Of a stretch of 64,000 nucleotides of DNA, positions 5,871 to 50,522 are shown piece by piece; the stretch's first letter is position 1; every line of letters starts with the position of its first letter. A program made the position numbers and the translations under genes. The notes beneath the pieces are model-generated. The model was given only the letters and a program-made list of their open reading frames with translations. It was not told the origin of the DNA and ran no database searches. This DNA is from an uncultured Planctomycetia bacterium (lineage in GTDB: Bacteria; Omnitrophota; Gorgyraeia; 2-02-FULL-51-18; JAGOUK01): NCBI GenBank assembly GCA_964430735.1, contig CAYSFB010000008.1, positions 12,870 to 76,869 on the forward strand, written 5' to 3'.

Positions 5871-5877
5871 TCCACAT

Positions 5878-7424: not shown

Positions 7425-7436
7425 CGCCCGACCCCG

Positions 7437-10227: not shown

Positions 10228-10276
10228 GCCGCTTCAGCCTCCGTCCGGTCCGTTCCCGACAAAAAATCCCGCTTCC

Positions 10277-10305
10277 TTGAACCCGGCTGGGCCGTTGGGC
10301 ATACT
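10277..10305 (+). promoter_or_regulatory. Candidate sigma-70-type promoter for giant gene 1 (TTGAAC-N17-CATACT)
   Basis: TTGAAC at 10277-10282, a 17-nt spacer, then CATACT at 10300-10305. The architecture resembles the candidate upstream of giant gene 3. Pattern match only. Confidence 0.3.
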
Positions 10306-10375
10306 TTGGACTAAGGTTTGATTAAACGCGCTTAACTTGGGGGTGGGGAACTATCGCCTGTTCAACGGATATGCT

Positions 10376-11990
10376 ATGCCCGGCTTATTAAATAATCTAA
10401 TAAGACTAATTTCATTAGTTTTGGTGGCCGCGTTCGGCCTTCAGGAGGTCGCTTGGGCTGTGCCTGCTCCGGCCCCGGTTGCGCTGTCCGTTTCGCTTGC
10501 CGAGATCGTCCGGAATCCGGCGCTGTTGCCGATCCCGGAGGAGGTGATGACGGTTGAGTCTCAGATCGCCGGAACCAACGGCAAACTGATCGTGCTCGTC
10601 CGTGACGCGCACACGAACTTCGACGCGCAGATGAACCTCGCCAAGGCGCTCGAGTTTTGGATGGACAGGATGCCGCTGGACCTGGTGCTTTCGGAAGGCG
10701 CTTCGGGCGACGTGTCGGTCGACGATGCGGCCGCGCGCTCGGGGCTCGCGCCGGACGACCTCCAGCGCGCCGCGCGGCGGATGGTGTGGGACGGCCAACT
10801 CACCGGACATGAATACTGGAATCTGCTGTCTCCCAAAAAGTTCTCGATCGTCGGCGTGGAAGATCCCGGGCTTTATGGCTCGGGTCTGAAGACATTTGGG
10901 GAGCTGGCCGACACCCGGCATCGGATATCGAAGGATCTGACGTCCGCGTCCCGCGCGATCAATAAGCTCAAGACCCGCCTCTATCCCCAAGCATTGACCG
11001 AGTATGAAGCATCTATTGCTGCTGCCGACGGACAACCGGACGTTTTGAAGCGATCGGAAAAACTCATGGCGCTCGCCGCCGCTTCCGGCGTGGACGCGTC
11101 GGCAGAACGCTATTCCAATCTGGCCCTTCTGCGCCGCCTCGCCGAAGCCGAAAAGACCATCCGTTTTGACCGGTTGAACCAGGAATTTGCGCAATTGTCC
11201 GGAGTCGCCGGAGGAGAGTCGGAGAGCGGTTTGGAAAAAATGCCCGCACAGCCGGCCGGCCTTCTGTCGCGGATTGAAACGCTGCTGGATGCGGCCGACC
11301 GCAAGGGCTTGTCGCGCGCCAATGCTCCGGAATTGGCGTCCTATGCCGGTTATCTGCGCTTGTTGGGATCGCTGGATCACGCGGCTCTTGCGGATGAGTT
11401 GGATGCTTTGGAGCGGGAAGTGTACGCCAAGCTGCTCCCGGACGCGACGCTCATGACGCTGCGGGAACTGGATCTGTATGTCGCCCGTACGACGGACGGT
11501 GTTTCGGTCCAACTCGACCGTTCCGGTTACGACCGCTGGGCGCGGGTGCGAAAAGAAGCGCCGACCGTCTCCTGGCAGGCATTCCTCAACGATCTTTTGA
11601 TCGCGAACGGTTGCGCCGAAGACTTGATTCCGTATCGCGAAGAATTGGAGGGGGCCGCCGGTCCGATCGACGAATTTTATCAGAACGCTTCGGACCGCGA
11701 CCGCGCCTTCGCGGACAACGCCGAACGCGCGATGGAGTCGGGCGGCGCATCTGCCGCGGTCCTCGTCGCCGGTGGATACCACACCCTGAACCTGATCGAC
11801 CTTCTCGCGGCCGAAGGATTCTCGATCGTAGTCATGACGCCCCGCATTACAATTTCCACCGACCGTGATCGCTACGAAAAGATTGTTCTCGCCTCTGAGT
11901 CTGCTTTTATGCCGGCCCTCTCCCGGACGGCCGAAGCATCCGGTCGATTGACGCGGTACGCCCGCGGACAAACAGGACCTGCCGCCAAAC
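10376..11990 (+). other. Shared N-terminal domain of the giant-protein family (copy 1 of 3). It contains the His motifs 'QDAH' and 'GG[YF]HT' and is possibly Tiki/TraB/GumN-like.
   Basis: Alignable by eye to 37246..38830 and 50523..52100. Conserved blocks: 'GTNGKLIVLVRDAHTNFDAQMNLAKALE', 'LVLSEGASGDVSVD', 'AGGYHT...L...GFSIVVMTP' and 'T.D.D.YE'. Confidence 0.6.
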
Positions 11991-14900
11991 TCCTAAGCGT
12001 TCTATTGAGCATCGAGCCGGATGGAGCCCGGCTGGCCGGGACTGACGCGGCTGTCGCACACACCATCCGGATCCAGAGTTCCGGTGATCTGGAATCAGCA
12101 ATCGTCCGCCGGTTCGCGGTCTACAAAATGGGTTCCGCAGACGAAGCCGAACGGTTTGCCCGGGAATTGGCGCAGACCGTCAGAACCCGTTATGCCGCTG
12201 AACTGGCCCGTGACCGCGGCCGCATCGTGATCGTCACGCCGCCGAGGAATGTGGCGGGTTCTCCGATCACGGCCGTCGCGCGCAGCGTCGCCGCGCAGTT
12301 GGGATTGCCTTATGTCGAGACTTTTGAAGAACCGCTGGAACCCGGGCCCACTTATATCGGCGTGAGCAGCGCCCGGGTCCGCGAAAAACTCGCGCGCCAG
12401 ACGGGATTAATCCTCCGGCCCGAGCTGAATCTGGCCGGCAAGAAGATCCTGATCTTAGACGACATGATCACGACCGGCACGACGATCCGGGCGACCCAAA
12501 GCAAACTCGAAGAGCGTTTCGGGACCGAAGACTTCATGGTTGCGGCGATGGTCCGGCTGGAATCGTCCGACCCGGCGGACGAAAAAAACGTCAGCCGTTA
12601 TCTGGCGGACCGGAAAGACTGGGATGCTGTAGTGGAGATCCTCAACGACCCGCGCACCCGCATCGGCAAATCCGTCGTCGAAATGTTCACCGCACTCAAC
12701 CCGGACATGCGGATCGGTCTTCTGGCCCAGCTGACGGACGTCGCGGTCAAAAAACTCCTCCTGTCGACGATGCTGTTCGACCACGGAACCCGGTCCGTCG
12801 ATTGGATGCAGACGCTCTGGGTCCGGATCGCCCCTGTCGCCTGGTCGTCCTCCGCGCACCCGGCCCTCGAAGACGGGTATTGGTCCGAAGAATTCCAATC
12901 GTGGCTCGACCGTGCCGCCGCGTCCGAAGCGGACCCGGTGCTGCTGGAACAAATGATCCTGCTGCTGGAATTCGTCCATCGCCGCGAATCGATGACACGG
13001 CTTGTGACAATCGCGGACCGATTTAAGGGAAGCTTCGTCGGGACTCAGGCGACGGATGCGCTCAACCGCCGGGTGGAGCCGGTATCGGAAGACGACGTGT
13101 ACGACGTATTTGAGCATTTCCGGTATCCCAAAGGATTGCAATCCGGACTTGCGCGGCCGGACGGAGAGCGGACGATCAGTATGAAGTTCCTGGGAGAGCC
13201 GCGTCAGGAGCTGAACGCATCCTTCGCCGGGTCCGGCCGTGATGGGCATGTCTCAAGGATCGTGACCCTGACGCCGGATCCGGACGGGACCGTCATGGCG
13301 AAGCCCAAAGAGCGGATCATTTTTGACGCGTCCTGGATGAAGCTGAGGCCTGATATCGCCAATGGCGCGGTCAAAGGGATCTTTTTGAAAAGCGCGGGCG
13401 ACCGCAGCGGAGACGTCACGGCGCGCATCGTCGTCGACGACCGGATGCTCGATGTGTTTCCGGCCCGCGCCGGTAGGGATGGGATCATCGAGTGGAGAAT
13501 CGAGGGACTTTCGGAAGCGCTCCGCAGAAAATCCGCGACGAACCAATTCTTTTTCCGGAACTGGCAGTTCCAGCGCCGTCCGGAGGCGGTCGCCGGGGCC
13601 AGACTCGCGACGGGAGAGGCGGGCGCCGAAGCGGCGGAAGTCGCGGCGTTTGCCTTTACAGGAATCGACGAAGAAAAAATATACAGCGACCCCGACGCGC
13701 TTGAGGCCATCGCTCCTTTCCGCATCCGGGTGTTGAAAAACGGTCAGGTCCACTTCGGAAGCCGCGACCGGGGCCGTCTGGAGAAGAGCGTCATGGCTCA
13801 CACGAGCATTCCCGAAGGCGAATGGCTGACGGTCACTCCGGAGTACCGCCAGCAGCTGCCGGCCGGACTCGACGCCCAGTGGATCCTGCGTTTGAACCGA
13901 AAAAGCGGAGCGCCGTTGTATTACCGTTTCGTCAATACCGGAACTTTTTTGAAAAAGCTCGACCTCTCGGCTGGCGGATTCTTGGGATCGTTCTCGAGAA
14001 TCGGACGATATAAGGACCGGTCGCTGCCTCCGTTTCCCCAGGATGAATTCTCGGTGACGGTGCTCAAGGGCGGAAACGCCAATTTTGCGAGCTGGTCGGA
14101 TACGCAAGGTTCCGGAGATGCTGTTATCCGCCGTCTCAGGATACGGCTGGGCGACGAGTACGAAGGCCTGCCGGTTCGGGTCCGTAAGTTTTTTGTGAAT
14201 TCGCAGTTGAGCGAATGGCTGCTGCTGGTGCTCAAGCCTGCCACCGGAACCGCGCCGGAAACGGGTGATTCAATTCGCGGGCGCATGCTGGTTTACCGTT
14301 TTGTCCGTCCGGGCCGGATCGAGCAGATTAAACGCCACCCGTCCGGTGACGAGCAATGGTCCGCCTTTCCGGGGCTTGACCAGGCCGCTGCCCAGTTCGC
14401 TGTAACCGCGTCCCCGGGTGACGGGGCCCGGTTGGCCAAGTCGGGGAATGCGGATGACGGTATCGAGTTCGCCGAGAAATGGTTGAGGAAGTACGCGTTT
14501 TTGTCGAGGCTGCGGATGTCGGATGTGGAATGGCGCAAGGAGGAAGGGGAGAAGTTGGCGCGGGAAGCCGCCAAAGCTATTTCTGAAGTCCACGTGATGA
14601 TCCGGCATCGGTTGGCTTACGATGCTCAGGGGGTTGAGTTGAAGCCCGTCGTTTCGCTCCGCGGCCTGACGCTCGAGCCGAGCGTGGACTATTGGACGGC
14701 ATGGGCCTCCGCCGCATCCGACCACGGCGAGGAGCTTGGTGTTTCTGACGGATGGAAACAGGCGGTCCTGGGCGCCATCACCGTTTTGTCCTGTTATCAA
14801 GACAACCACGCCCATCTGAAGCATCAGGGCGGCGAGTCCCGCCGGAATTACTACCGGTCCGTGTTGGCGCTCGACTCCGCGCGGCTTGTTCTGGATCCGG

Positions 14901-17900
14901 CGAGCCGTGGAGTCCGGATCGACCTCGCACACGCCTTTTTCCACAACAAAGAGTATGTCCAGGCGGAGAAGCTGCTCGAGGACCTTCTTTTAAGCGATAA
15001 AACGAATCGGACTGCGCTGGTTCTGACCGGTTATGTGCGGTTGGAAATGGCCGCGCGCGCCTTGAGCCGGATGGAGCGGCAGCTTGAGCAGGAGAAGTAC
15101 ATGGACGCGCTGGAGTCCTTCGCCCGCACGCTTCGGCTGCTGGATGCGGCTCAGGAGCCGCTGCGCAAGGCCACCGATCGCAGGACCTTGAACGGACCTC
15201 GGGGGATCAAGAGCCTCGCGCGGGCCATGTCCGGGATGGCGCTGGTCGCCATGCGAAGGGCGGAAGCATACCGTATTTTGTCCGATCGTCCGGAGGTGCG
15301 GGGGGTCGCGCAGCCGCGCTATCGGTCTGTCGTACATTCGATCAGCGCGCTCGAACACGCGTTGTCCGCCCTCAACGTGAATGGAGCCGGCCCGGACGCA
15401 TTGGGCCACAGCTTTGGGATATATCGCGATATCGTTGTCCGCCTGGCCCGGGGATTGGACGCATCCGCGCTGGACCGGATCGATCCGGCCCGTTACCAGG
15501 AATTGCGCGGCCTCATGGTCCGGATGAAGGAACTTCTGAATTCCGCTCCCAACGATGACGTGCCGGCGCGCAAGCGCAAGTCTGCCCGCGGGAGCCATTC
15601 CGTTCAGACAACGATCGCCGACTCGATCTCTGTGCTGTCGGCCGTCTGCGTCGCCATCCAAACCTCGCTCGATCGCCGCGACGAAATCAAAGAAAAGCTC
15701 AACAAGGCCGTCTTGCGCGTGCTCCATGACCAGCATCCGGAAGACCCCGCATCATTTGAAGCGCGCGTGGCCGAGGATTTTGCGGCGGCGATTCCCGTCG
15801 CTCAAGTCTCTGAACGGGAAGCGTGGATCGCCGTGGCGAGAAGCCATTTGGAGTCGCTCCATACCACCCGCGAGGACATCGCGCTGGCGGGGTGGCATCT
15901 CCTTTCGGATTCCGGAGACAGAACCTTGGAATCTCTATCGGAGATCTCGGGCATCGAAGCATCCGTGGTCGCAGAGCGGTTCCGGTCGCCGTTCTTGAAG
16001 GAAGTTGGTCTGGCGTTGGAGGAAGAGTCTTCACCGCCGGACGCGGACGTCAAGGTGTCGCCCAAAAAATATACACAGGATATGGCTATTTATAATCTGG
16101 GTGATATCAAGTCGTTTCTTGCCAGCGATGTCTGGATCCGGCCGGAACCGGATGCTGCTGATGTGCACACCATTCCTTCTGCGAAGCATATCGAGCGGAT
16201 GTTCCGGCAGCTCCGGCCTTGGCTTTCGTTCAGATCGCCGATTGACTGGGACCATCTGAGCGCGATGCGAAAGCGGATGTGGGAACAAATCGATCAATTC
16301 TTTGAGCTGGCGCCGAGCGCGTTAAAAAAGAATGCAGAAGATATAGACACGCTTCGAATGAACCTGACCCATTTAAGGCGAGGGACAGACGATAAGCCCG
16401 GTTATTGGGTCCGGGCCAAGGAGCTCATGGACCGGCTTAAGCGCAGGCAACAGACTATCGAGGATCAGATCCGCGCGGGCATCGGCAAAATCGATTCGGA
16501 TTTGACCAAATTGCGGGCGCGAAACAACGTGTTGCGCATCGGCTACCTGGACGAATTGATCAAAGGTCTTGAGCTGCGCCGCGCACGGCTGAACGGGCTC
16601 CTCGATCCGCAGGACCCCGGCTATCTTCTGCCAGAGCATTTTGATGAACAGATGCAGGCGGCGCAAGCCGATCGCGAGTTGGTACAGCCGCTCGAAGCGG
16701 TGGAGGCCTCGCTCACGCGCGTGCGGGATCTTGAGTGGGAGGTCGATCGGCAGGTGCATCAGGCGGCAGAGGCCGCCGCAGCAGCCGATCTTCCGGGAAC
16801 TTCCGCCGCATCCGCTGTTGTCCGGCGTCTTCGGACGGAGATGAGGCAAGTGGAGCGGATGTTTCAAAAATACGCGCTGCGCGCGGACTCGGAAAAAAAG
16901 ATGAGCCAAATCGAAGGCCGGCTCGGTCGTATTCAGCAGGAGGCCGTGAGAATCCGTCAGGCGCTCGAGCGCCGTTCTTCGATCCGTGAGCGCATCAGCC
17001 GCATCCGGCAACAGGCCGATGCCGGAAGACCGCTCCTCCAACCGTTGACTGAATGGTGCGCGAAAATCGCCCGGCAGACCGATCGCATGGACGACATGCT
17101 GCGGGACGCGGACCTTGCCGGTGATAGGCGGGAAGACGGTGAAGCATACTCCGGACGGCTTCAGCTGGTCTTGGAGGAGGTCGATAGGGTCGAAAAGGAA
17201 GTCGACGAGATGCTGGCCCGGCTGGGTCAAAAGAGCGCAAACGCCATGAAGGCGAGCCTGGTGGGGGTGGAGCTGATGGCCGCGCTGCTCTGGCAGTGGA
17301 GCGAACAGGCGTTTCCGGGTACAACCGCGCATGCCCGGCGCTTCACGACGGCGAGCTGGAAGCTGCGCGAAAAGATCGAAAAATTAAAGTCCCAGTCGGA
17401 CCGGGGATGGATCGATCCCGGCCTCAGGGAGGAGATTGATATGGCTTTTTTGATGTGCTTTTTGGAATACGTGCGGGCCATGAACGAGGAGCATGATCTC
17501 CTGATCGACAAAGCCAAGCAGCAGATTCTGCAGCTCACGAAGCAGCTCAAGAACAGGATCGCCACCGGTCCGATGAAGTCCGAAGAGATCGGGTTGTTTA
17601 CCCTGACGTTGACTCGGGTTCACTACTTGGACCTGCCGTCCGACTTTGAGCTCGTCCTTTATTCGGACAAGGAACAGCGTCAGAGGCTCAGCGAGGAAGG
17701 GCATAAGGCCTTCATCAAGAAGCTCAAGGCGATGCCGGTCCATGACAACCCTTTTTTGCAACAGTTCGAAGACCGCTGGCAGTACCACGGGCCCGAAGGG
17801 TTCGAAGAATCGTTTGCCTATCGGGACTTGCTGCACGGGCTTTGGATGACCGTCGTGTTTTACATGGACGGGTACGAATCCGCCTCCGGTTCCACAAAAC

Positions 17901-20900
17901 CCGTCCATTTTGCGCATCTATTTCCGGAGGCCGTACGCCTGAAGCAGCTCAATGTGATCCGGCGCCGGATGATTGGAGCGGATGCCGATCGAGTCGGTGA
18001 CCCCACGATACTTTTTCCTGTCAACAGTCCCGAACAGCTTCGTCTGATCATGCAAGTCCGATCAAGCACCGATCGGTTTCTGGAGAATCTTTTTCCCGCC
18101 TTGGATGAGGATTTGGGGCCGGCGGATCCCGACCGCATGCAGGAGGCGCGGCATGTCCTGGACCGTATTCTGACCCAGACTCAGGAGAATCGGGGAGCGC
18201 GGCTGGCGCGTGACGGGCTGACCCTGAGCGCGGACGCGCAGGGGTTGGACGAGAACCGCTTCGCCGCCGCGTGGGTCGATCCGGCGTCCGTCGAGCTTCC
18301 GATACTGCTGGCGTCCGAGGCCGGGAGCTGGAAGGCGCTTTTGTCCGCGGCGCCGCGAAGTCAGACGGATTCGGGGGACGATGACCGGCGGCGCGAGTTG
18401 TGGATGCCGGGCGATGCGCCGGTCCCCGGAGCGGACGGCATCCCGCTCAAGCATCTGACCTTTTCGAGCAAGGCGCTTCTTCTGTGGGAGTGGAAAAGCC
18501 GGTATCCGGAACTTTTTGCCGGGAATGCGCCTCAGATATTTAAGCAGCTGGGTTTTGACCGGGAGGGCGTGATCGAGTTTGCGGACCCCATCACCCGGTA
18601 TCGTTACCGGATGCCGGCGGTTCCAACCGCACGGGGAGGGATGAACCTTGTTTTTCTGGCGGCTGCGGGGCATCAGGTTCGGGACGCAGCCGGCGCGTCC
18701 ACCGAAGAACACGGACGCGACGCGGCGGTGCTGGTGCCCATCCGGCCCAATCAGGGCTGGCGGTCCAGGGCCGTGGCAGAAGTCTATGACGCGCTTCATC
18801 CCTACCGCATCAATGAAGTTCAGGTCCCGCATGACCGGATTCCGCAGCTGATCCAGCTGATTCCGGCGTCAAACGCTCCATTCGGCGTGGACGCGGTCGC
18901 GATCGAATATCTCGACCCGGGCGGGTTCATGGAATCTGTTCGCGACATGCAAACCCGGCTCACCCAACAGTCGCTGGAGCGGAAGCTGGGCATCCGGATG
19001 CGGTTCTCGCTGGTTCTTGGCGCGGCACGGGCATTGCAGATGATGCATGAAGCCGGCGTGATTCACCGCGACTTCAAGCCCGAGAATGTGCATTGGGACG
19101 GGGATGACGTGAGAATCGTGGACTTCAGCAACGCATTCGTTTACCGGGCGCCCTCTCCGCTGGCGATCCCCGGGGCCCAATCCCGGCTTCAAACCATGCG
19201 CCTCATCGAACCTCTCGAAAAACAGAAAGGCATGCTGGGGGGTACGCCCCGGATTCTGGCGATCGACGGGACGGTCACGCCGAGTTTTGTGGAGGGGTCG
19301 GCCTTCCTGGAAGCGACCAAGCGTTTTGCACATGACCCGTCACAGGACAAGTTCGCCTTTGGACTGTTTTTGGCGCAGGCGTTCGGGATGCATGCGACCG
19401 GAGCGATGGATTCAAGAGAGTTAGATTTGCGTCTGGAATTGCTGCAGTCGGATTTGGAGCGCGCGGGTGAGCAGGTCAAATGGCCGGCGGACCTGTCGGC
19501 GGTCGGCCTGATCGGGCTAATCCGCCGTCTGCTCGACCCGGCGCTCAAGGCGCAGGACGATCTGGACTGGAAGGAAATCATCGATACACTGCAGGGTTTT
19601 GCTGGCATCTACGGGACGAGCCGTTTTGTGCCGACCGAATTTACCGCGGAGAAGCTGCCCGGAGACAGGTATTCGCAGGGTTATCGGGGCGGCGGTACGC
19701 TGGCTCTTGACCCGCCCGGTCTGCCGTCAGATCCCGGTTCAGGCGCCCGGCTTGCCAATGGCAAAGGTCTGGATCCATCCGAGGATGATTTACGCGATAT
19801 GTATACGGCCGCTGCGTTCGGCCCGGATTATCAGATCCATCGGACGCTGCGTGCGGGTCCGATTGATACCGGGATTTTTAAAAATTCCTATGACAGGATT
19901 TTTTCAAATATGAATTTTGGTCCGGAGCAGAATTTTTCTTCCACACTGACGGCCCGCGTGAAGCTTCAGAAGCAGTCGGATCCGAGCCGTCCCTGGATGT
20001 GGCTGGACGTCGGTCCGGGCGCAGGCAATGCATTGAGGGAGGGGATCGAGCTGATCGAGGAAAAAAGTCTTAACGGCCATTATCGGGCCTTGGGCGCGGA
20101 TATCGTTGACCATCGGAGCCGTTCCGGAAGATCCGCGCCGGCCGCCGGTGATTATGGATTCATCCCGCTTCCAGGAGGTGTCGAGAATCTGGAGGTTCCT
20201 GATGGCGCCGAACCTGACCTGATCACCGCGGTCCATGTGCTCATGTACGCAGACGATCCGCTTCAGGCGCTAACCCGCTTGTACAACGTCTTGCGGCCCG
20301 GCGGCGAATTGCTCGTCACCGTCAATGCGATCCATGTCGGCAGCGCTCCGTCAGCGCTTCCGATGATGAATTCGTGGGAGATCGGCAATTGGTTCAGCGG
20401 ATACGCCAAGGATCTGAATTCCAAGGGAATCGCAAGCGCGGAGCTCATCGGCGACGTGCTGCGCATCCGGAAGCTGTCCGCGGACCGTGTCCGGCTCTCC
20501 ATTTCCGCAGATGAGTCATTTGAGCCCTATCGGAACCAGGAAGGCATCCGCATCATCCGATACCGTCCGGCAGATCCGTCACAACCCGGGGTTCTTGAGG
20601 TCGTCGGACCCGGCGCGCGGTTGGCTCAGGCGGATTCGGCTCGGAATGCGATGGCTTCGGTGGCTCGATACGGATTCGTCCGAAGAGGGCTTGAGGCCAA
20701 AAAAATCTTTGACCTTCAGCTGGCATCGACCGGACCCGTAGATTCGGACACGGCCGGAAGGATCACCGGACGTCTGTTGGAACTCATCAAACAGTCTGCG
20801 TTGTCGGCGGGCGATAAGAAGCAATTCCGGCGGTTTTCGGATATTGTTGAGAGTCTCGAGTATCATTCGATTGACCCGGTGTCGGCAAGTCCTTCGGATT

Positions 20901-23900
20901 ATTTGGCGGCACTGCACGATCCCGCTAAAAAAATTCTCTATCTCCCGCAGATATGGATCGATGAGCTGACGAGCCGCACTCCGGCGGACGCCTTCGACGA
21001 GGCCTTGGTCCGGGAGATTTTGTATCCGGCTCAGCGCGTCGCCGTTTTGGGCGGCAGCGGCAAGGTCGGCCGCCGTATTGCGGCCGAGCTGAGGCAGGTG
21101 TACCCGGACGTTTCGGCTGCATCCCGAAGCGGCGGATTTGGGTCCCAAAAGCTCGACGTGACGGATGATGCTGACTTGGCCGGATGGATCGACCGCATGC
21201 GTCCGGATGTAATTGTCTACGCCGCCGGGATCGCAGACCCCGACCGCGCCCAGCGTGATCCTGAAGCCGCTCAATTGCTCAATGCCCGAATACCGAAACG
21301 TCTGCGCAGCCTCACGCGAGCCAGACTCATTTATCTTTCGACAGACAACGTCTTTGACGGCCAGTCCGCAAAGCCCTATCACCCGAAGGCCCGCCCGCGG
21401 CCGCTCAAAGGCATGGCTTATGGCCAAAGCAAGCTCGACGGCGAGCGCGTCACTTTGGACGGATTACGCCACCGGAACGCGGTGCTTCGGCTCGGTCTCG
21501 TCGTCGCCGAAGAGGATGTTGAAAAAATCATTCAACAAATCCAGGGCTCCATGAGCGGAAGCGCTCAGGCGCCGACCGTGGACGGAAAGCGAAAGCGCTA
21601 TCCGGTCTGGGTGGATGATGTCGCTTTGGCGGTGCGGGACCTGGTCGCGAATCCGAAAAAGGGGATTTACCAGCTGAACGGCGAAAAGCCGATAACGCGG
21701 TTTGATATGGCGAGGATCGCGGCCGTGGAATTGGATCCGGAGTCCGGCGATCAACACGTCCTGGCCGGAACGACTGCGACGACGGCCGCAATCCAAGCGC
21801 CGCGTCCGGCGCATGTCCGCATGGAGAATAATCTGATGAAGCCCCGTCCCATTGAGGATCAGATCGTCCAGACGACGAAGCTGGCCGCGCACAACGGGCC
21901 CGGCGCATTAGCCCGGCTTGACCGCGCCGTGCGGCTCCGGGACGGGAAGCTGCTGCGTGAAGCGATGGGTGAGCTCGACGCGCTTGGAATTCGCTGGACG
22001 CTGGCGGGGCCCGTCGGTGCGTTGGAAGATTGGCCGGAGGCCCCGCGTGTCGTGGATACCGGCGATGCAGCCGCAGTATCCCGCGCGCTTTTGGACCATC
22101 TCGTGACTCCGGACACATTCCGCGAGGATCTTGCCAGGGCGGTCGAATCTATTCTGATGGAAGTTCCTTTGGATAGGGTCAGAGTGATGGCTGCGGTTGT
22201 GGATGAGCGGGCCGACGAGTATTGGGTGAATCCGGAAATGGGCGTGCGGACTTTGAGGATCGTCTCGACGGATTTTGTGTATCGGGGGATCGGGATGCGG
22301 TACTGGATGAGCGTCTCCCAAAATGGGATTCCGCATGGGTTCGGTCCCTTCGGACCCTATCGGTCGATGTTGCTTCCCTTGATCAGTCGAATGCCTGACG
22401 GTTCGAGCGCGCCGGCGGAAGAGGTGCTGCAAGGCGGCTCCATGAGCACCGTGGTGCGCGTTCACGAATCGGATCGGAGCACGGTGATCCGTAAATCGGC
22501 ACCGGCCGGTTGGCATGCCGACAAGTTGCGGGATGAGGCGCGTTACATGCGGATGCTCGAGGCTACCGGAATTTTTCCAAAGGTATACGACGTCCAATCG
22601 TCTGACGGGGTGCGCAAAAATCCCCTGTTCAGGCGTCTTTTGGAAAATCCGGCCGCGGCCGCTTGTTTGCACCAATTGATCAAGCTTGCGCACCAAATTC
22701 CATGGCTGAGGCCATTGGCCGGGATGCTTGAGCGATGGGCGGCTCAGCCGCCTGTCCCTAAAGGGACTACGGTCTGGATGGAGGACCTGAAGGGCTATGA
22801 ACAGCTGACCGAAGTGTCCCGTTGGGCCCATTTGGGATTCAAGCGGCCCGAAATCAAGAGCAGTTCGATCGACGACCGCACGATCTATCGTTCGGACTGG
22901 GATATCGCTCTCGACATCTACCGGTCGCTGATCCCTATTTTTTACGGAGTTCAGTCAGCTCAAACGCCGCCGGACTTCCTGCGCAAGTATCATTTTGAGA
23001 AGCTGGAAACGCGCTGGGCCGAGGCGCGGGCGCGGTCCCGTCAGCTGGACCTCGTCATGTCCGCGCCTTACATCAAAGACCCGGATCGCCGATACGGACA
23101 ACTGCTTCCCAACCTCCCGCTGGCCGCGCAGGCGGCGGAGGCGATCGCGTCGTATGACCCGGAAGCCCTGCTTCCGCCTCATCTGACGCGCGAGCACGGG
23201 GACCTGCATTTTGGCAATATTCTGATCCCGCCGGCGGATTACTTCCGCCGCAAGCGGATCGAAAGTTTCCGCCTCATCGATCCCAAATGGCTGCCGAACG
23301 GGAATGACCCTCTCTACGATTTGGCCAAACTCATGCACAACAAGTACGGCTGGTACGATCTCGCGCTCAATCACCACGATTCGTTTTACTTCGGCATGAG
23401 TGTGCCCGAATCCGGCGGGCCTGCCGAATTCCATTGGAACTTTGACGACGAGTCGTATGCGGGTGATCGGATGAGGGACGAGTTTGGAGCTGTGCAGGAC
23501 TTCAGTCAGCAGTTCGAGGAGTGGATGCGCCTTCCGGACGATGATCCAAGGGTCCGGGATATGGAACGCTTTGGTTTGAATTGGCGGACGCGGCTCATTT
23601 TTACCCACGCGTCCCTATTGGCCGGACTTCTCAACTTCCACGTTCTACCGGAAGATCCGCAGTCCAAGATCAGCGTGATCTACTGGCAGGCGGCGACGCA
23701 ATTTGACCGCGCGATCCTTCATTTGATCGGCCGTGAAGAAGAGTATCGCCATCAGACGGGCCAACGCCGACTGCCGGACGATCTGTACACACCGCTGAGA
23801 ACGATGGTTCTGCTGCAGCGGGTCTACCAGCAATCCGATTCAGAAGAGGTCAAAGCCGCTGCCGAGCACCAGTACGTCGCGGCCATCAACGATCTGCGGC

Positions 23901-26900
23901 ACTTCCTGGAGCAGAGCACCGCTCCCGCTGTCTCCGGCGCGCGATTGGCGAAGCGTACCGATGTCCGGCGCAAAGTAAAACCTGTTGATCGCGATAATCG
24001 CGGACCTGAGTTAAAAGCGGCGCCGGACCCGCTGGATATCATCTTTGCTGATCAGCTGATCCGGGAGTCTGACGCGCGTCTTTTGGCGGCGTTGGCGGCG
24101 GGGGAGCCGCAATCCTTTGTCGTGCCGGTTGACCGATCGGCCATCCGGCGGTTGCACGACCGATATCGTCAATCCCGGACGGCAGAGGAGCGTGAAGCTG
24201 CCGAACAGCTGCTGGTGGATTCGCAGATCCGCTGGATCGTCCAAATTGCCCGTAAATGGGACCGCATCAATCAGAGCCGTGTGCACAACTCGGAAGTCGG
24301 ACTCTCGGACATGGTGAGCTTGGGTATTCGTAAAGCGCGGGAGTCGCTCGATCGGTATGAGCCGGATAAGGGTGCGTTGAGCACGTGGATTACGCTGCCG
24401 GTCGACGGAGCGATCAGAAATCGGGTCTATGAAGGCGCCCGCCACCGGAGACGAGCCGGCAATATCGACTTGATCGGCTCCGAGATTGCCGCTCTTCCTG
24501 ATCTGACTTCCGATCAGAAGAAAGCCGTGCGGTCGGCGATTGCCGGAATGGAGGAAAAGGATCGGGAGATCGCGATCCTGTTCTTCGGCCTGATCGGAGA
24601 CAAAGAGACCAGCAACGAAATCGCCGACCGATACGAAGGGTTCTTGTCCAAGGAAGAGATTGAATCCCGGGTTGAGATGATTCTGAAGCGGATTTCGGCT
24701 CTGAATGCCTCGAACCCCGCAGAGACGGATCGAACCGTGCCAACTCCGGAAGAGAACGCTCCCGCATCCTGGCAGAATGACTCGCTCGCGACCATCCGGA
24801 TGATGCATCTGGCGTTGCGGGATCCGGAGACCGTGAGCTCCTGGGAGGCATTGTCTCAAAGGGATTTGTCGATTCTGCGCACCTACTACGAGAGCGGCGC
24901 GGAAGCTCGTCCGACAATGGAGCAACTTGCTTCTGAGTACAAGATCAGCAGGGCCAGGGTGGGGCAGGTCATTCAAGGAGCCGTTCGACGGCTTCGGAAT
25001 GAGCAGATGCGGGCCTGGAAGCATCTGCGGGAGGCGACGGGACTATCGCATGATCGGATACGCGCGGCATATGACCGGGCGGTTGATGTCGAGCGTCAGG
25101 AGGACGGTATCCGCAATGGACACCCCACCCCGACTCCCCGGGAGTTTGAAATGGAGCTGCGTCAGATCCCGGGCGTCCGGGCGATCGGCCCATTGACCGC
25201 GGAGCTGGCCAGGGCCCATTACAACCTGGCGCACCCGGCGACTCCGCTGAAGTTCTTCGGAGAAACCGAAGAATCCACGCGGTTGAGCGGATCCGCATCC
25301 GCCGAGGATCGGATTCTCGCCTACGTGCAATCCGCCGGCGGAATCGCATCCTGGAAGGAAATCGCCAAACATTTGGGTGTGAAGCAATCCGAGGCGCGGA
25401 CATATTTGACCCCGGAGCGGCTCGGGCAGATTCAATCGGAATCAAGATACGGAGTCGATGCGACGGTTCAAAGGCAGCGTTTGGTCCCCATCATCCTGGA
25501 TGCCCGGGACGCTGAGAGGGCCCGCCGAATCATAAGGGCGATGGAAGGAACCGGCAAGGAGCGAAGCTTCCGATTTGGAATGGCCACCTATCCTGAGATC
25601 GCCGCTGCGATGAAGATCCGTCTGTCCGGAAGCCGGCCCCCCCGGACCCGGATCTTCCGGCGCATCAATGCCGAGCAGCTCCTTGCCGATCTCAACAGCA
25701 ATAGAAGAATATTGAATCGGACGGGCCTGCCGTTCCGCCCTCTGCTTCAGATCATTCCGGCAGACGATCGGAACGCGGATTTGCGTGTCGTTGCGCGTGA
25801 GTTGCGCGGCGGTGATCCGGCCTCCGCCATCGGGATCGCCGAACGCGTCGGACGGTCTGCGAAGAGCGTTCATGCATCCGTCGAGCGTTTGCTGTTGGAC
25901 CACACAAGCGCCCACCGGCACCTCTATAACCTGATCGTCACAGGGCAGCCGATGATGCGAATGCCGGACGATAATAAAATATTTCGCTCTCAAAGTCAGA
26001 TTTTAAGGGCGGTTGAAGAATTGGGCGGTGTCGCCAACGCCCGGCAGATTTGGGATTACCTTCGGAACCGATACGGAGTAAAAATCAACCGATCGACGGT
26101 TGAGGATTATGCGTTCCGTCAGATGGATTGGGACGGGATCAACCGGCATCGGATGCAGGAGGGCAAGTTTGCACTCCGCGTTGTCGGTGCGAACCTGGAT
26201 GGATCCATGGCCCGCAGGTCGTTCGGCGATCGTCCCGGTTATGAGGGATTGGACCCGCTGCTGGTGAGCGCGGAACGGGATTACAGAGATCGATTTAAGG
26301 AATCAGACGACGGACGCACCGATTTCAGGTACCGGGTGTTGCCGGCGATTCATGGCATCCTCAAGCATTCCCCATCCGAGCAACCGATCGAAGTCCGATT
26401 CGGCCGCGTCAGCGATTTGTTGATCGACGCCTGCGCGACATGGTCTCAGCTCAACCCGGGACTTACCCGGGCGGAATTTTTTGAAACGGTCACTCTTCGA
26501 GCCATCCTGTTAACTTCCATTAAGACCGATGTTGATTCTGATTCGGATTGGGTCGGCCGGTTTGCCCTGACACTCGAGAAGGTGATTCACACCAACGGCC
26601 CCTTGGCGCCATCCGAATATGCCCCCTGGCTCAAGCCCGCAAGTTCCGCATCGCCGAGCCCCCGCGCTACCGATCGGAATGGTGCCCGCCTGTCAGAGAA
26701 TGCGGCCGGATCGGCCGGACAGATAGACTGGCGGGAGCAGGCGCGATCGCTGCTTGAACCGGATCCCGATAAGCGGTCTTCCGCCTCACTTGCGCTCGCA
26801 CGGGTGCTGATGCTGGATATCCGCAAACGCGTGGATGAGGGGATGGATCGGAAAGAATTCGGCTGGAACGATCCCGGCCGGATCGCTCCGGCTGTTGCGC

Positions 26901-37245: not shown

Positions 37246-40200
37246 ATGGTTATTATTAATAAGAATTGCATAGGTATTTTTTTACGCCGTCTTATATCTA
37301 TAAGTCTATGTCTTAGTTTTGGGGCGATGGAATTGGCGTGGGCGGGGCCGGATGTTTTTTCGGCCGGTTCTGCCGTGCCGATCCGGAGCGACTCGGCCGC
37401 CAAGCCTTTTTCCGTCACGATTCCGACCGATATTTCCCGGCTCCAAGTTCCGCTGGAGCACACGACGCTCAAAGAATTCCATCAGGGTACAAATGGCAAG
37501 CTCATCATCCACATCCAGGACGCGCACTCGAACTTGAGCGGTCAAAAAAGTTTGGCCGGAGCGCTCGACGAGATGATGACCCGATATGGGGTGGAGCTCG
37601 TGCTGGTCGAAGGCAGCTCGACCGACGTCACGCTCGATCCGCTCAAGAAGATCGGCACGCGCGACCAGTGGAAGCGCGCGGCGAACCGGCTGCTTTACGA
37701 GGGTTTGATCTCCGGCGAAGAATTCCTGAACCTGACGACCGACCATCCCATGAAGCTCATCGGGATCGAGTCTCAGGAACTTTATGACGAGAGTCTCGAG
37801 ACCTACGCGGAGTTGGTGAAGTCGCGCCAGAAGACGCTCAATTATTTGCGCCGGATCCGGCTTGCGCTGGATCGTGTGAAGAACAAGCTGTACCCGTCGG
37901 AGTTGCTTGCGTTTGAGTCAGCCTGGTCGGCGGACCAAGACGACTTCAATCTGCGCGTCGGAAAATTGCTGGAGCTGGCCGATCGGGCCGGCGTCACGCT
38001 GGGTACAGACTTCGCCGAGATCGCGAAGCTCAAGGGCTTGCGCGCGCGAGAGAAGCAGATCGACTTCGACGCGGCCAACCGCGATCAGGAGCGGCTCATG
38101 ACTCTGGCGTTTCAGGGCAAGGACGAAGCCGCGCGCAAAGCGCTTGCCGATGCGGGTCGCCGGGCACGGACCCAGCCGGTGGCAATGGGGGCTTTTCTGC
38201 GCGCGCTCTGGAGCGAGGCGGAAGGGAGGGGCGCGGTGCGCGAGAGCTTCCCCGTGATCCTCGCATACGCGGAATACCTCGACGCGTTCGGCATGCTCAA
38301 GATGGAGGATCTGCTCGGACAGCTCGACCTGCTCGAAGACACCGTTTACAAGACGCTCTTGGCGGACAGCGAAGACGCCCGGATGACCCGCGCCTGCGAC
38401 CGCTTCCTCGGGCTGCTCCAGAAGGCTTACCAGATCAAAATGTCCTCGACCGAATTCGCGATGCTGCAGCTGAACGAAAAAGACTTTTCGACGAAGCTCA
38501 TTCTCGGATTCTTGAACCGCAAGCTTCTGGACCTGGGATTCACAGAGGATCTAACCCCGTACCAAACCCCGATCGAAGACGCCCGCGCGTCGCTCGAAAA
38601 GTTCTACGAGCTGGTCGACCGCCGTGACCTGGCGTTTATGGAAAAAAGCGCACAGGCGTTTACCGGCCAGCAGGCCGACGCCGCCTTCTTCATCGCCGGC
38701 GGATATCACACCGGCCACTTGACCCGGCTGTGGCGCGGTGCCGGCTATTCCTACGCGGTGCTGACGCCGGCGGTGACGTATGAGACGGATCAGGATCAGT
38801 ACGAGAACCTGCTGCTCGCTCCGCTCAAGCTTGCCCGCAAGCGCATCCAAAAACCCTCCCATGAGTCAGAAGAGCTGATCCAGATCGCCAAAGACCTTGC
38901 CCCGGAAAAAGCAGCCGACGGGTTGCGCAAAATGGATGCCCTCGCGACAGCTGAATCGAATGGAGCCCGGTTTGCAAAATCACTCACCGTCAGTTTTTCG
39001 CCGATTCAGGCGGCGGCAGTTACGGCTCAGGCGGCGCGGTTGGCGTCTCAGTCTAAATTCGAAGCATCTGTTGATCCTGAAGGGGATGGAGGCTGGAAAA
39101 ATCTTGGCAAAACGGTCGGATATATGCGGGATGTCCTGAATTCCGGTCAGTCCGACTTGGATTATGCGTCGATTTTAAGCGGAGACCAAAACGTCACCCG
39201 GGATGCGGCCGAGGTCGAACTCCGAACTTATATTCATAACCAGGCGTCGCTGCAAGATCAGGCATTGATCGAGCTGATCGCGAACGGTCAGGACGCGTCC
39301 GCCGCCGGACCAACAATCGGCCGATTCGGCCTGGGCATGTATCAGATGTTTCAGGAACTCAAGACGCCTGACGATAGGATTGTCGTGACGACGTCCGACG
39401 GGACTTCGGCGACGCGGATGGAATTCAGGCTGACCAACGGGGCTATTGAGTACAAGGCCTCGAACCTGGGAGGCGGGTTGCCGAAAGGCACCCGCGTGGA
39501 TGTCCGGCGGAACCTCGCACCCGAAGAGATAAAATCAAAAATCGGCATTATTGAGAAAAAACTGGCGACCAATTCGCGCGGTGCCGTCAGACTGCGAAAT
39601 AAGGACCGGGACGCGGAAGTCACCGTAAATCAGATCGACGGCTACCGATATCTGAACGGCGACGCCGTGTCGGCGGACATCATCCCTCCAGTTGATGTGG
39701 AAATCGGCTCTGAAGGGTATTCGATCATCGATCGCGGACGCGGCATGAGCCCGAAGACGATCATGACGAAGTATCTGATGCCGAAAGGAACCACCAAGAA
39801 CATCACCGGTCAGGAGTCTGAATCTTCTGAGGAAGTTCGCAGCGAGACCAAAATATTTTATCGGATGGAAGGGGACCGGGAGAATGACGAAGCGGTCATC
39901 AGGATCCAAGTGAGCGGCGTTTTGATCCAGGAGTTCAAGGCGCGGGGCCTGAATCTTCCTGCGGTGACCGTTTTGGAGCTCCCTCATGCGGTCTGGCTTC
40001 CAGAGTCCCGCGACCGGGTGGCGTTGGATCAAACGACCATTCGGGGTCTGATGGATCTTGTGGACAAATTGCTGGCACCCGAGAGAGAGGGTTTGGACGC
40101 CCGGTTCGCGCTGATCAACGCGATCGGCGCGTTGGCCAAAAAAATGTCCGATGAGACGAACGGCAAGGACACCCGCCTGATCCACGAGCTCAAGCAAAGG

Positions 40201-43200
40201 GTCTCCGCTGCAGTCAAAAGAGAAGAGCAAAACGGGGCCGTTTTTGTTCCTAATAGGATGGAGTTTTCCGCCGTCAGGACGAAGAGCGGCCGGATCGTTT
40301 ATCTGGACGAGAAGCTGTTTTACTTTAGCCCCCAGGGGATGAAGGGAGCGGAGCTTATCAACAAGTTTGAATCCAGATCCAATAATCGGCTTTATCTTGT
40401 GGATTTGGACTCTTCCGAAGGAGCTCCCGCTTACTTGGCGGGACGCGCGGGCATCGGCTCCGGCTGGATCTTGATGAATCGGGAACTCTACGATAAACAC
40501 AAAGATGATCCGGCCTTCATCGATGCTCTGCTGAATCTGAAGATTGACTATGGCAACCCGGGAGTCCAGCTGGGCAGGCTGATCGTTCAATCGGATGTGA
40601 GCGCGGCCCGGCAGGAGGAGGCGAATTGGGCGGCATCGTCTCAGTTTGAGCTTCCCCGCGGATTCTGGGGCTGGTGGAAGGCCTGTTTGAGTCTGCCCTT
40701 GGGTTTGATTGATTCTCTCACGGCAATCGCGGCGGTCGTTCAAGGTATGTTGACCGGCAAACGCCGTGATTCGGCAGCATCGAATGACGACGATGTGCTC
40801 GCCTCCATCATCAACCAACCCAAAGCGCTTATCGGTAAATGGAGCGAGGCACCCTATCAAAAAACCCATACGCGCTATTTAGTGCAGCATGCGGGCAATA
40901 TGATCAGCACGGGCACGATGACACACGAGAACGAGCACGAGTACATGGCTATGTCCGATCGGCTGATGTCCGCAGCCGACCGGCTGCGGACGGCGATTCC
41001 TGGGATTGATATCGGAGCCTCAGCCGCGGAGTGGCTCGACCAAAGCTATTGGCTCATGGACGCATCGATCGACGGAACGGACAGCGCCGAAATTTTAAGA
41101 ACCCACAAAGACCATCTGTATTTTTTAAGAGGGGATGACGTATACCGGATGGACTCCTCCGGATTTGTGGAGCGGGTCATCGAGGGACCTCAGACCTTTG
41201 CCGGAGATCATGACGGTTATCTATATTTTAATAAGAAAGACGGTGTTTACCGTACCGGTTCGTCAGGCGACGCCGAGCTTGTGATGGAAGGGGCTGAGGT
41301 TTTTATCCGAGGGGGAATGGCTGTGGCGGTCAAGAATCCAACGACTTCGCAGGAACAACCCGTTTTATACACACTCCGGAAGGGAAAGGCCGTTCAGCTC
41401 GATGAGCATGTCGAAAAGATATGGCCGGGCGGTGATGCGTCCGGTTCCATGGCTTACGCGACGCGCCATAACGGCGTTACCACCTTAAAGGTCATTGATG
41501 GGAACGGTGCGGTAACGTCCCGTGTGCTGACGCCGTCTGCCTGGGAGGCCATCCAGAAGTCGAACTATATATATGAATTTGATTTTACGGCTGCTCTTCA
41601 GACTAGCCTCGGTTACAGGCCAAAAAAATATCTCAAGAGGGGCGATCATACGGTGCTGGTCGAAAACGGAAGGATCATATTCTATCAACATGGGTCAAAG
41701 AGAGCTTACAAGCCCCAAGTATTCGAAGTGCTCGGCGACGGGAGCGTTGTGGAGTATCCGGTGGACCAGGAGGAGCAGATCAGTCGTGTTATGACTGGGC
41801 CTGACGGTGCATTATATGTTGTTGTGCACAATGTCTGGCAGGGGATGTTGGAAGGGTTTTTTAGAAGAGACTTATCTGGGTTGGGCGGGATGAGGAGGGA
41901 GGTTATAGGTGAGGAATCGAGCAAGATCTATAAGCATAAAATGGGCGAGGTGACGCTTGTATCGGAGGGTAATATCACCGAACTTCAGCGCAGCAATGGC
42001 GGTATTTATTACAAGAGTTCGGGTGAATGGAAACGGGTTGACGAGAACGGAAAAGAAATCGACTTGCTCAACTCTTCGATCAGCGAAAGGATCAGGCGGG
42101 AGTATGGTTCCGCTGTTGATGTTAAACAGGTCGGAGTGATTGGGGGCAACCTCATTCTTTTTAGACGAAGCGCTTCCGTGCAGGAGTTATCGGCCGTGCG
42201 GCCTGGTCAAAGGGTTCGTCCGGTGGCCGGCGACCTGTGGTGGATTTATGACATGGGCGCCGGTGAAGCGGCGCCGATGAACCAGCTTCTGACTGATGTG
42301 ATACAGGTCGAAGGCGGGATTGTTGCAGTCAGAAAGTCCGCTCAAGATCCCATGAATGAACCCCTGAGCTCAAGTCTCGTTTATATTCGGCAGGGGAGCG
42401 ATGGGATGCTGCAGGAAGAGGTTTTGATCGATGGGGCGGAAGACATAAGGATGGAGCTTGATGGAAATGAGCTGCACGTCGTCAACCAGCCCAAAAATCA
42501 ATACGCCTCTTATGAGAAGTACTCTTTAAAAGACAATCAAGCACGAGTCGTTGAAACGCACAAAATCAGGGGAAGGCTTGCTCCTGACAGCTATTTAACA
42601 TACGACAAGCAGAATGAAAAACTGGAAGTAAGGTCTGAAGAATATTCCCTCACAAATCATCTGATCGACGTTCACAGCGGCAGTGTGGTCGATATCACTC
42701 TAGGGAGGGACATTAACAACTCGGCATCCCGGACGGTCTTTATCGGCGGAGCGAGTGTCCATTTATCCGCGAAGGCTGATAGGCCTATCGCCGTTGAGAT
42801 AACCCTGCCGTTCATGCTTCGTCGATCGGAGACCTTTTCAAACAGCGCGGAACGTTTGATCGGGGCTTATTCATCGTTCAGCCGGTTTATCGACGAGGCG
42901 TCGAAAGAGGAATACGGCAACCTTCTGCATTCGCTTTGGCTCGCGGAGGGAGGGTCTCCCGTGAACATGTTCTTAAGCATGGAGCAGCAGGCGTTGTGCG
43001 CGCCCTTTATGACCGAGGAGGTTGTGAGTGTTCTGGAGGGTTATCTGTCGGAGGCCGCGAGCATGAAAAGCGCCCGCGAGATTTTTTCGGAGCTCATCCT
43101 GCCGGTTTTGAATCTGTATCAGGCGTCCGCCCGCCGGCCGGAGGAGATCCGTGAAGGGCTCTTAAAACTGCTCCGCAACCTCAGACGCATGCAGACCTTG

Positions 43201-50407: not shown

Positions 50408-50436
50408 TTGAAGGCAGCTTGTGCCGAGGGTATACT
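50408..50436 (+). promoter_or_regulatory. Candidate sigma-70-type promoter for giant gene 3 (TTGAAG-N17-TATACT)
   Basis: TTGAAG at 50408-50413, a 17-nt spacer, then TATACT at 50431-50436, about 85 nt upstream of ATG 50523. No terminator separates giant 2 from giant 3, so co-transcription is also possible. Confidence 0.35.
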
Positions 50437-50522
50437 CCCCACAAGTTATTTACTTTTTCACGGCAGTGCTTTGCCCTCTATTCAAGGGCTTATCACAAGT
50501 CATAAAACGACGGGATCATTTG

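Follow-up and report, generated by a model that had tools for sequence, protein, structure and literature searches.

A phylum-wide N-terminal domain of giant Omnitrophota proteins related to the TIKI/Ere superfamily

Results

Three giant genes start with a shared head domain

We analyzed a window of 64,000 nucleotides (nt) from an uncultured bacterium labelled Planctomycetia and placed in the Omnitrophota by GTDB (assembly GCA_964430735.1, contig CAYSFB010000008.1, positions 12,870 to 76,869). The window contains three giant open reading frames (ORFs), here called G1, G2 and G3, each of which begins with a signal peptide that is directly followed by a domain of about 470 amino acids (aa) common to all three. 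This domain, hereafter the head, is the subject of the present analysis; the segment at 10376-11990, which corresponds to aa 14-551 of G1, covers the signal peptide and the head of the first giant (Table 1). The three heads are paralogs with pairwise identities of 28-33%, and the likeness among the giants ends 40-100 aa past the head domain. The DNA of the window also occurs in two metagenome runs, SRR14271373 and SRR14271366, as assembled in Logan.

In the signal peptides of G1, G2 and G3, a positively charged n-region precedes some 12 hydrophobic residues and an A-x-A site, with predicted cleavage between VAWA and VP in G1, LAWA and GP in G2, and AAFA and AP in G3. The homologs described below have the same n-h-c layout, and no internal transmembrane segments were seen in the giants. 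The public gene calls for G1 (P0002) and G2 (P0001) begin at internal codons, aa 42 and aa 28 respectively, and thereby drop the signal peptides (10337-10459 and 37246-37344). Since the longer ORFs with signal peptides match the layout of the homologs, the starts of the database versions of G1 and G2 are probably mis-called.

An initial annotation of the three giants, made from the letters of the sequence, had described two histidine motifs with an acidic motif between them, and all of these are present in the three giants. The first, hhhh-x-D-A-H-[TS]-N (h, hydrophobic), reads LIVLVRDAHTN in G1 (D90, H92), LIIHIQDAHSN in G2 (H94) and LFLLQDAHTN in G3 (H111). The E-[GA]-S proposed to follow the next hydrophobic stretch is not strict, the corresponding segments being LVLSEGAS, LVLVEGSS and HVFTEASQ, but the glutamate that closes this strand is invariant and always lies exactly 28 residues past the histidine. 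The second histidine motif reads VLVAGGYHTLNLIDLLAAEGFS in G1, FFIAGGYHTGHLTRLWRGAGYS in G2 and VLVTGGFHTPNLKELLKRKGIS in G3; its consensus had to be loosened to hhh-[AT]-G-G-[YF]-H-T-x-x-L...G-x-S to accommodate an L-W in G2 and a G-I-S in G3. Two further motifs are shared by the heads, namely G-[VI]-E-[DS] after the third strand and F-Y-x5-R-D-x-A-F, the arginine of which is located exactly 28 residues ahead of the second histidine in all three giants.

Table 1. Features of the three giant ORFs in the window, with residue numbers counted from the start of each ORF
Feature	Position	Strand	Details
Giant ORF G1	10337..28789	+	6150 aa; likely start ATG at 10376
G1 layout			Signal peptide, head, then PRTase, protein kinase, methyltransferase, RmlD-like, APH and sigma-70 region 4 modules
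G1 Sec-type signal peptide	10376..10459	+	MPGLLNNLIRLISLVLVAAFGLQEVAWA, then predicted cleavage before VPAPAP (A-x-A motif); read from sequence
G1 head domain	10493..11896	+	aa 53-520; probable TIKI/Ere-like fold with helical insert
G1 strand 1 and first catalytic motif (predicted)	10586..10630	+	LIVLVRDAHTNFDAQ (D90, H92, N94, Q98); invariant; D90 pairs with Ere E37 (hhalign)
G1 strand 2 and Glu	10682..10711	+	LVLSEGASGD (E120); invariant; pairs with EreA E68
G1 strand 3 and acidic residue	10844..10864	+	SIVGVED (G173, E175); conserved 80/80; pairs with Ere G-x-D
G1 helical insert	10865..11743	+	About 290 aa, aa 177-469; all-helical, between strands 3 and 4 (AF2 secondary structure)
G1 Arg motif	11675..11710	+	FYQNASDRDRAF (R454, D455); invariant; R-D pairs with Ere R-D-x-x-M-A (hhalign)
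G1 strand 4 and second His motif	11756..11824	+	AVLVAGGYHTLNLIDLLAAEGFS (G479, G480, H482); invariant; H482 pairs with His of Ere A-H-N-x-H
First G-A-R-L-A of G1	12023..12037	+	aa 563-567, 43 aa past head end
G1 PRTase module			aa 618-764
G1 protein kinase module			aa ~2891-2938
G1 SAM methyltransferase module			aa 3223-3326
G1 RmlD-like reductase module			aa 3567-3835
G1 APH module			aa 4031-4133
G1 sigma-70 region 4/HTH module			aa 4838-4888
Giant ORF G2	37246..50370	+	4374 aa
G2 head domain	37408..38823	+	aa 55-526; H94, E122, R460, H488
Giant ORF G3	50421..63371	+	4316 aa; likely start Met35; adenylate kinase, 2-hydroxyacid dehydrogenase and hexokinase modules
G3 head domain	50640..52082	+	aa 74-554; H111, E139, R488, H516
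G3 adenylate kinase module			aa 1698-1892
G3 2-hydroxyacid dehydrogenase module			aa 2906-3204
G3 hexokinase module			aa 3362-3739

The head is a large family that is conserved across the Omnitrophota

A HMMER search with a profile built from the three heads against 1.84 billion cluster representatives (50% identity clusters) yielded 8,699 representatives at E <= 1e-3, of which 3,878 passed E <= 1e-30; the top three matches were G1, G2 and G3 themselves. The statistics on motifs and positions in homologs were calculated from the best 150 of the 8,699, in which the head is located at about aa 45-515 of proteins of up to 7,364 aa. Every homolog that carried a name in the search with the G2 head belonged to Candidatus Omnitrophica/Omnitrophota. 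Scanning the species genomes of GTDB resulted in 287 confirmed loci, 80 of which were analyzed; almost all of these were from Omnitrophota metagenome-assembled genomes, often with several loci per genome, and a few were labelled Planctomycetia, Eisenbacteria or Deltaproteobacteria.

Searches of Pfam, NCBIfam and the sequences in PDB returned nothing above threshold for single heads, for profiles of 3, 45 and 18 sequences or for a profile from which the insert had been deleted, and no Pfam or NCBIfam model covers the head. According to published work on giant proteins of Omnitrophota, their N-terminal regions 'generally lack identifiable domains', and Tiki, TraB and Ere are not mentioned in the literature on these giants that we examined. 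We consider the head a previously unnamed, Omnitrophota-wide family.

Nineteen residues were fully conserved in an alignment of 143 heads (G1 numbering): D90, H92, N94, Q98, E120, G157, G173, E175, R194, N418, F447, Y448, R454, D455, F458, G479, G480, H482 and Y513. A broader alignment of 45 sequences, with identities down to 19-33%, left D90, H92, Q98, E120, G173, E175, Y180 and E272 invariant, while R454, G479, G480, H482 and T483 were near-invariant, the exceptions being truncated sequences. At the 80 genome loci (23-36% identity), E120, G173, E175 and Y180 were kept in all 80, and R454, G479, G480 and H482 in 78 of 78, the remaining two loci being truncated; D90, H92 and N94 were part of the search pattern of the scan and are conserved there by construction. 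Both histidines and the acidic residues singled out by the initial annotation are invariant in the wide alignment, and judged from these comparisons the motifs shared by the heads are not a product of chance.

The helical segment that interrupts the head has conserved residues of its own (E272, F277, Y336, Y339 and E359), which suggests that it may form a functional lid or a substrate-binding surface and not a passive spacer. E272 and F277 are part of an E-K-x-I-D-F pattern in this lobe, and positions 336-340 read Y-x-x-Y-L.

The head resembles the TIKI/Ere superfamily in fold, motif order and spacing

The TIKI superfamily, as outlined in the paper on the RRSP structure, has an alpha/beta core with a parallel sheet and includes Ere, ChaN, PMT and TraB/Tiki; RRSP itself has a set of two histidines and two glutamates (E3900-x-H3902, E3930, H4030) and a conserved arginine, R4001 (PMC6254334). 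AlphaFold2 (AF2) models of the head were built with the three sequences (predicted local distance difference test, pLDDT, 74.6) and with the 45-sequence alignment (pLDDT 92.8, predicted template modelling score 0.87). In the model, a first strand is followed by strand 1, which ends in D-A-H, a helix, strand 2 (E120), short elements and strand 3 (E175), and then by the helical lobe of about 290 residues, after which the chain continues with strand 4, ending in G-G-Y-H, a helix and strand 5. The modelled head has the alpha/beta core with a parallel beta-sheet and flanking helices that is typical of the superfamily. The best globular match in a Foldseek search of PDB was EreC (6xcs_A) for both models, with the probability increasing from 0.63 to 0.90 and reaching E 0.028 over 413 aligned columns for the better model; the remaining matches were coiled-coil and helical-bundle noise on the lobe.

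To compare the sequences, we constructed an Ere profile from 11 diverse real Ere-family proteins in plasmid records; an EreA sequence was used solely as the search probe for these, and real ere(A) genes were 98% identical to it. In the Ere alignment, G36, E37, H40, E68, G124, D126 and H279 were invariant and R-D-x-x-M-A nearly so. The head and Ere profiles gave two independent top local alignments in hhalign (P 0.013 and 0.017), one of which placed R454-D455 on R-D and H482 on the Ere histidine, and the other D90 on E37, E120 on E68 and G173-x-E175 on G-x-D. Their scores of 28.1 and 27.1 compare with 16.7 +/- 2.8 (maximum 25.7) for 80 block shuffles of the Ere profile, and the sum of the top two scores, 55.2, was not reached by any of the 80 shuffles (maximum 42.8).

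The spacings also agree. In EreA the distances from H40 to E68 and from R251 to H279 are both 28 residues, as in the three giants. The corresponding distances are 28 in Bcr135 (H85/E113) and 28 and 29 in RRSP (H3902/E3930 and R4001/H4030) (PMC6254334). The full set of D90-x-H92, E120 (with E175), R454 and H482 is found in the head in the order and with the spacing of the superfamily's catalytic residues.

Weak matches to two curated families of the superfamily were also observed. ChaN (PF04187) was matched by 3 of the 45 natural members, always in the R...H region (profile positions ~128-205 of 213; best E 0.007), with 14-19 bits against a gathering score of 27.7. TraB_PrgY_gumN (PF01963) was matched only by the artificial insert-deleted consensus (profile positions 161-260 of 263; E 0.002-0.004), with 17.6-18.7 bits against a gathering score of 26.8, and the erythromycin esterase family (PF05139) was never matched by heads. 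The library-wide E-values understate these matches, since the superfamily was specified before the search.

The Ere enzymes (EreA-D, Bcr135/136; PF05139) provide the closest comparison. They are the best fold match in PDB, their alpha/beta core halves are likewise split by a helical lobe, and they share with the head the motif order [DE]-x(1,2)-H, E, G-x-[ED], R-D, H with spacings of 28 and 28. The head differs in having D-A-H-x-N in place of G-E-x-x-H and G-G-[YF]-H-T, with a single histidine, in place of A-H-N-x-H, and, unlike Ere, it carries a signal peptide and is predicted to be exported, is fused to or paired with multi-enzyme giants and is restricted to Omnitrophota. Characterized Ere enzymes are esterases. 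ChaN, the only curated family repeatedly matched by natural heads, is also an exported protein; it is a heme-binding lipoprotein that is not known to be an enzyme, whereas the catalytic set is complete in the head.

TraB/PrgY/GumN and metazoan Tiki (PF01963) are extracytoplasmic, and have a bipartite histidine motif on strand ends with Glu and Arg in between, as does the head; the targets of Tiki and PrgY are peptides or proteins that are secreted (PMC6254334). The first motif of the head had been likened to their G-x-x-H, but it is [QR]-D-A-H without a glycine at -3, a D-x-H that is closer to the E-x-H of RRSP, while G-G-[YF]-H-T fits G-x-x-H but lacks the leucine of G-x-x-H-L. The RRSP (DUF5)/PMT C2 domain of MARTX and related toxins, compared here by motif order and spacing, is an endopeptidase of the TIKI fold in which E-x-H, E, R and H are found at nearly the spacing of the head (28, 29), and it is likewise housed in a very large exported multi-module protein (PMC6254334), although RRSP is a delivered cargo module whereas the head is N-terminal.

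Taken together, the head is very probably a TIKI/Ere-fold domain. The placement of the head in the Tiki/TraB/GumN superfamily, as originally suggested, agrees with the EreC fold match, the alignment to the Ere profile, the spacings and the weak ChaN and TraB matches in Pfam, and no search assigned it to an unrelated family; the nearest branch, however, is probably Ere/ChaN and not TraB/GumN. Because its own motifs, D-A-H-x-N and G-G-[YF]-H-T, differ from theirs, we regard the head as a new sister family of the Ere/ChaN branch, distinct both from TraB/GumN proteins and from Ere enzymes.

A recurrent motif separates the modules of the giants

A short motif, G-A-R-[LM]-A, recurs behind the heads; it separates the modules in the majority of giants with heads and is missing from a quarter of them. 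All 17 copies of the strict form G-A-R-[LF]-A in the window are in frame inside the three giants, and the motif is absent from the remaining five frames and from all further genes of the window; besides the first site of G1, they start at 13595, 14423, 18194, 19742, 20612, 23936, 27500, 27830, 38962, 48382, 53403, 55080, 56214, 58941, 60387 and 62409. With relaxed variants included, the copies number 27 compared to 4 in the other 113,000 six-frame residues. In the 150 best homologs, 376 copies of G-A-R-[LMF]-A were observed where 3.4 were expected, and GARLA and GARMA were the two commonest 5-mers outside the heads; no copy was located inside a head. A broader pattern was at least 3-fold enriched in 104 of 142 long proteins with heads, and lineage-specific variants such as G-T-R-L-[AS] exist. 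A literature search for 'GARLA' returned author names only.

The position of the motif follows the modular structure of the proteins. The first site is located 20-90 aa past the head in 81 of 113 proteins, and the median spacing between sites is about 420 aa. Sites never fall within Pfam domains; the G3 hexokinase, for example, is bracketed by sites at aa 3323 and 3743. Blocks of homology between different giants start at most 15 aa from a site in 31% of cases as compared to 6.8% for random positions, a 4.5-fold excess, and only 17% span an internal site as compared to 47% at random. Conservation is limited to the five core residues and an S/A at -1, with flanks that resemble a flexible linker.

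At the 80 genome loci, 95 strict copies were found in ORFs with heads and 12 elsewhere, 9 of the latter in the ORF just downstream of a head. Heads encoded by separate genes end where the first site would be. The giants thus have a recurrent linker motif that delimits modules, as a self-processing polyprotein would, and the properties of G-A-R-[LM]-A are those expected of polyprotein junctions, making it a candidate cleavage motif.

The cargo is poor in cysteine and the head is kept next to it when split

Behind the Sec signal peptide, and without transmembrane segments, the giants carry domains of enzymes and regulators of cytoplasmic type. In addition to the modules of G1 and G3 (Table 1), a methyltransferase module follows the head of G2, and the giants of relatives carry PGM or PFK modules. 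Such proteins fit the 'multi-enzyme metabolic cluster' class of a 2026 preprint.

The giants contain very few cysteines, about 0.1% of their residues: 7 in the 6150 aa of G1, 5 in the 4374 aa of G2 and 2 in the 4316 aa of G3. Both cysteines of G3 precede the predicted signal-peptide cut, leaving none in the mature protein. The family median is 0.075%, as compared to about 1% for the neighboring housekeeping genes. Hexokinase, kinase and dehydrogenase domains are not usually so depleted, and the depletion agrees with export. At the start of giants that are predicted to be exported, poor in cysteine and modular, the head thus appears in an unusual setting. There was no dedicated secretion system beside the giants, the neighbors of which are ordinary housekeeping genes.

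Twelve heads at the genome loci are separate proteins of about 500 aa, each with a signal peptide of its own and a tail that is acidic. In all 12 cases the next gene downstream is an ORF of at least 406 aa on the same strand. Most of these ORFs have 938 to more than 2,800 aa, and the one of 406 aa is cut off by the end of a 3-kb contig. Most of these downstream ORFs have a signal peptide of their own, followed by a D-[HK]-L-R-[PK] motif. Since standalone heads always have an ORF directly downstream, the partnership of head and giant is maintained whether the two are fused or split.

Loci with split heads include L033, L037, L040 (344-1930, then 1934-5866), L048, L056, L063, L066, L068, L070, L080 and L081. 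Several downstream giants begin, past the signal peptide, with D-[HK]-L-R-[PK]-x-S, and some contain a PFK-like G-I-L-T-S-G-G-P-A-S-G-H-N segment. At locus L034, the head ORF (4945-6849) overlaps by 136 nt, in another frame, an ORF at 6713-15790 that has eight G-A-R-[LM]-A motifs and almost no cysteine, which looks like a frameshift, real or due to an assembly error, in an originally fused gene.

Discussion

Proposed function of the head

The explanation that we favor, by a small degree of confidence beyond even, is that the head is an Omnitrophota-wide hydrolase of the TIKI/Ere superfamily, the preferred role of which would be performed on the giant that is fused to it or encoded beside it. 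That the head is an active, exported hydrolase with a predicted His/Glu active site is probable. The Sec signal peptide would be cleaved off to leave a five-strand parallel alpha/beta core, in which the catalytic set would be placed at the ends of strand 1 (D90-x-H92), strand 2 (E120), strand 3 (E175) and strand 4 (H482), with R454 in the helix before strand 4. Strands 3 and 4 are separated in the model, as in Ere enzymes, by a helical lobe of some 290 residues. The His/Glu pair would activate water, and a peptide or ester bond would be hydrolyzed outside the cytoplasm. Acting on the cysteine-poor multi-enzyme giant fused to or encoded beside it, the head may cut the flexible G-A-R-[LM]-A linkers and so release itself and the individual enzymes.

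This last step is the more tentative part, and we think it rather doubtful that the head is the enzyme that processes G-A-R-L-A. The context, in the form of a fused or adjacent cargo gene and of separators between modules, is suggestive of a head that processes its own cargo, but it is not decisive because 26 of the 142 giants with heads are without the motif and no head position co-varies with it. It is about equally doubtful that the giants constitute a new class of bacterial polyproteins, in which nearly cysteine-free enzymes of cytoplasmic type would be exported by Sec and the head would be a maturation protease that first cuts itself off and then separates the modules, in cis or, for split operons, in trans.

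Several results limit the assignment to this superfamily, and others weigh against a processing role. The probabilities given by hhalign are low (2-3%), with the significance resting on our own shuffles, and the TM-scores in Foldseek are also low (0.21-0.23), which we attribute to the size and orientation of the lobe, although this is still a real limitation. No member family in Pfam reached its gathering score with heads. The hhalign comparison to a YbaP (TraB) profile was not significant (probability <1%), the profile being shallow: it consisted of Escherichia coli YbaP and its relatives at >=65% identity (number of effective sequences 2), the sequences first retrieved being at >=59% and those from the metagenome scan at >=69% identity, and had no match in PDB. 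The motifs of the head differ from the canonical ones, with D-x-H against G-E-x-x-H or G-x-x-H, and G-G-[YF]-H-T against A-H-N-x-H or G-x-x-H-L, and the match to the catalytic set is one of order, spacing and predicted strand ends. Some members of the superfamily are non-enzymatic, as ChaN binds heme and PMT is without the catalytic set (PMC6254334).

Regarding the cargo, the heads of motif-rich and motif-free giants do not form separate clades, and no short motif recurs in the most distant giants with heads. The downstream giants of split systems mostly have signal peptides of their own, and the majority lack G-A-R-L-A. Given the motif-free giants, the lack of co-variation and the absence of the motif from distant giants, the conserved role of the head is broader than G-A-R-L-A. 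An alternative separator in the distant giants was also considered and rejected, as the recurrent 5-mers there stem from shared phosphohexomutase-like domains.

It is possible, if on the whole unlikely, that the head is an active TIKI/Ere-like hydrolase with an external substrate, such as an ester or peptide in the envelope of a prey or host cell or a small molecule, and that the linkers are cut by another protease or remain uncut. The esterase activity of characterized Ere enzymes points in this direction, as does the finding that the head is equally conserved in motif-free giants and in split operons with mostly motif-free cargo, and published work on Omnitrophota giants proposes an attack on prey cell surfaces. 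Less easily accommodated are the facts that every head is either part of a giant or encoded immediately upstream of one, that the strict motif is almost confined to proteins with heads and that the first site comes just after the head.

An improbable alternative is that the head is a non-catalytic N-terminal module for targeting, secretion or anchoring, resembling TPS or the ligand-binding ChaN, that guides the giant to the envelope or holds it there. Here the precedent would be the TPS domain of two-partner-secretion exoproteins, a functional analogy only, in that both are conserved domains directly after the signal peptide of giant exoproteins; TPS, in contrast to the head, is a beta-helix without a catalytic set, and no gene for a TpsB-like partner was seen near the giants of the window. 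The fixed place of the head right after the signal peptide of predicted exported giants is compatible with such a module, the large lobe of helices might serve for interactions, and ChaN and PMT are examples of the fold without enzyme activity. Yet the set of two histidines, two to three acids and an arginine is 100% conserved in thousands of sequences, down to about 23% identity, which is typical of an active site, and split heads, being separate exported proteins, would better suit an enzyme or subunit acting in trans than a leader acting in cis.

Metallophosphoesterases have the signature D-x-H...G-D...G-N-H-[DE]...G-H-x-H on a beta-sandwich. Lastly, a convergent or spurious resemblance, the head being a novel fold or another His/Asp enzyme, is very improbable. 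In its favor, no database model reached threshold, the TM-scores are low and, in our own reading, the D-x-H-x-N and the subsequent E-G-x-x-G-D bear a superficial likeness to motifs I and II of metallophosphoesterases. The D-x-H / G-D / G-x-H reading was rejected with a Metallophos match in 0 of 45 members and a model that is alpha/beta with a helical lobe and not a beta-sandwich, EreC was twice the only PDB match that was not coiled-coil, and the hhalign comparison to Ere, which pairs the catalytic residues at identical spacings, surpassed all 80 shuffles.

The head is of interest as a very large, phylum-wide domain family, hitherto without a model, that carries a clear catalytic signature in a known superfamily, from which assays and inhibitors could be taken over. 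The giant proteins of Omnitrophota are an acknowledged puzzle, and according to published work it could not be analyzed, for want of known cleavage points, if each of them is split into numerous products; the separator provides a candidate cleavage motif with positions that can be searched for in metaproteomes, and the conserved residues of the head define a set of point mutants. If the head does process its giant, these proteins would be a bacterial counterpart of viral polyproteins and of MARTX toxins, with a different protease fold. Self-processing of MARTX is carried out by a separate cysteine protease domain. If the head is not the processing enzyme, it would still represent a new extracytoplasmic branch of TIKI/Ere that justifies a Pfam-type model for thousands of 'hypothetical' giants.

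Other genes in the window

An ORF with a subtilase (Peptidase_S8) domain is located upstream of the giants (232-1050, plus strand); S8 peptidases have reportedly been proposed as processing enzymes of Omnitrophota giants. Further along, an ORF with a nucleotidyltransferase domain (Polbeta/NTP_transf_2; 4820-5449, plus strand) overlaps an ORF of 148 aa without a Pfam match (5424-5870, plus strand), and the two may be a small toxin-antitoxin-like pair that is unrelated to the head.

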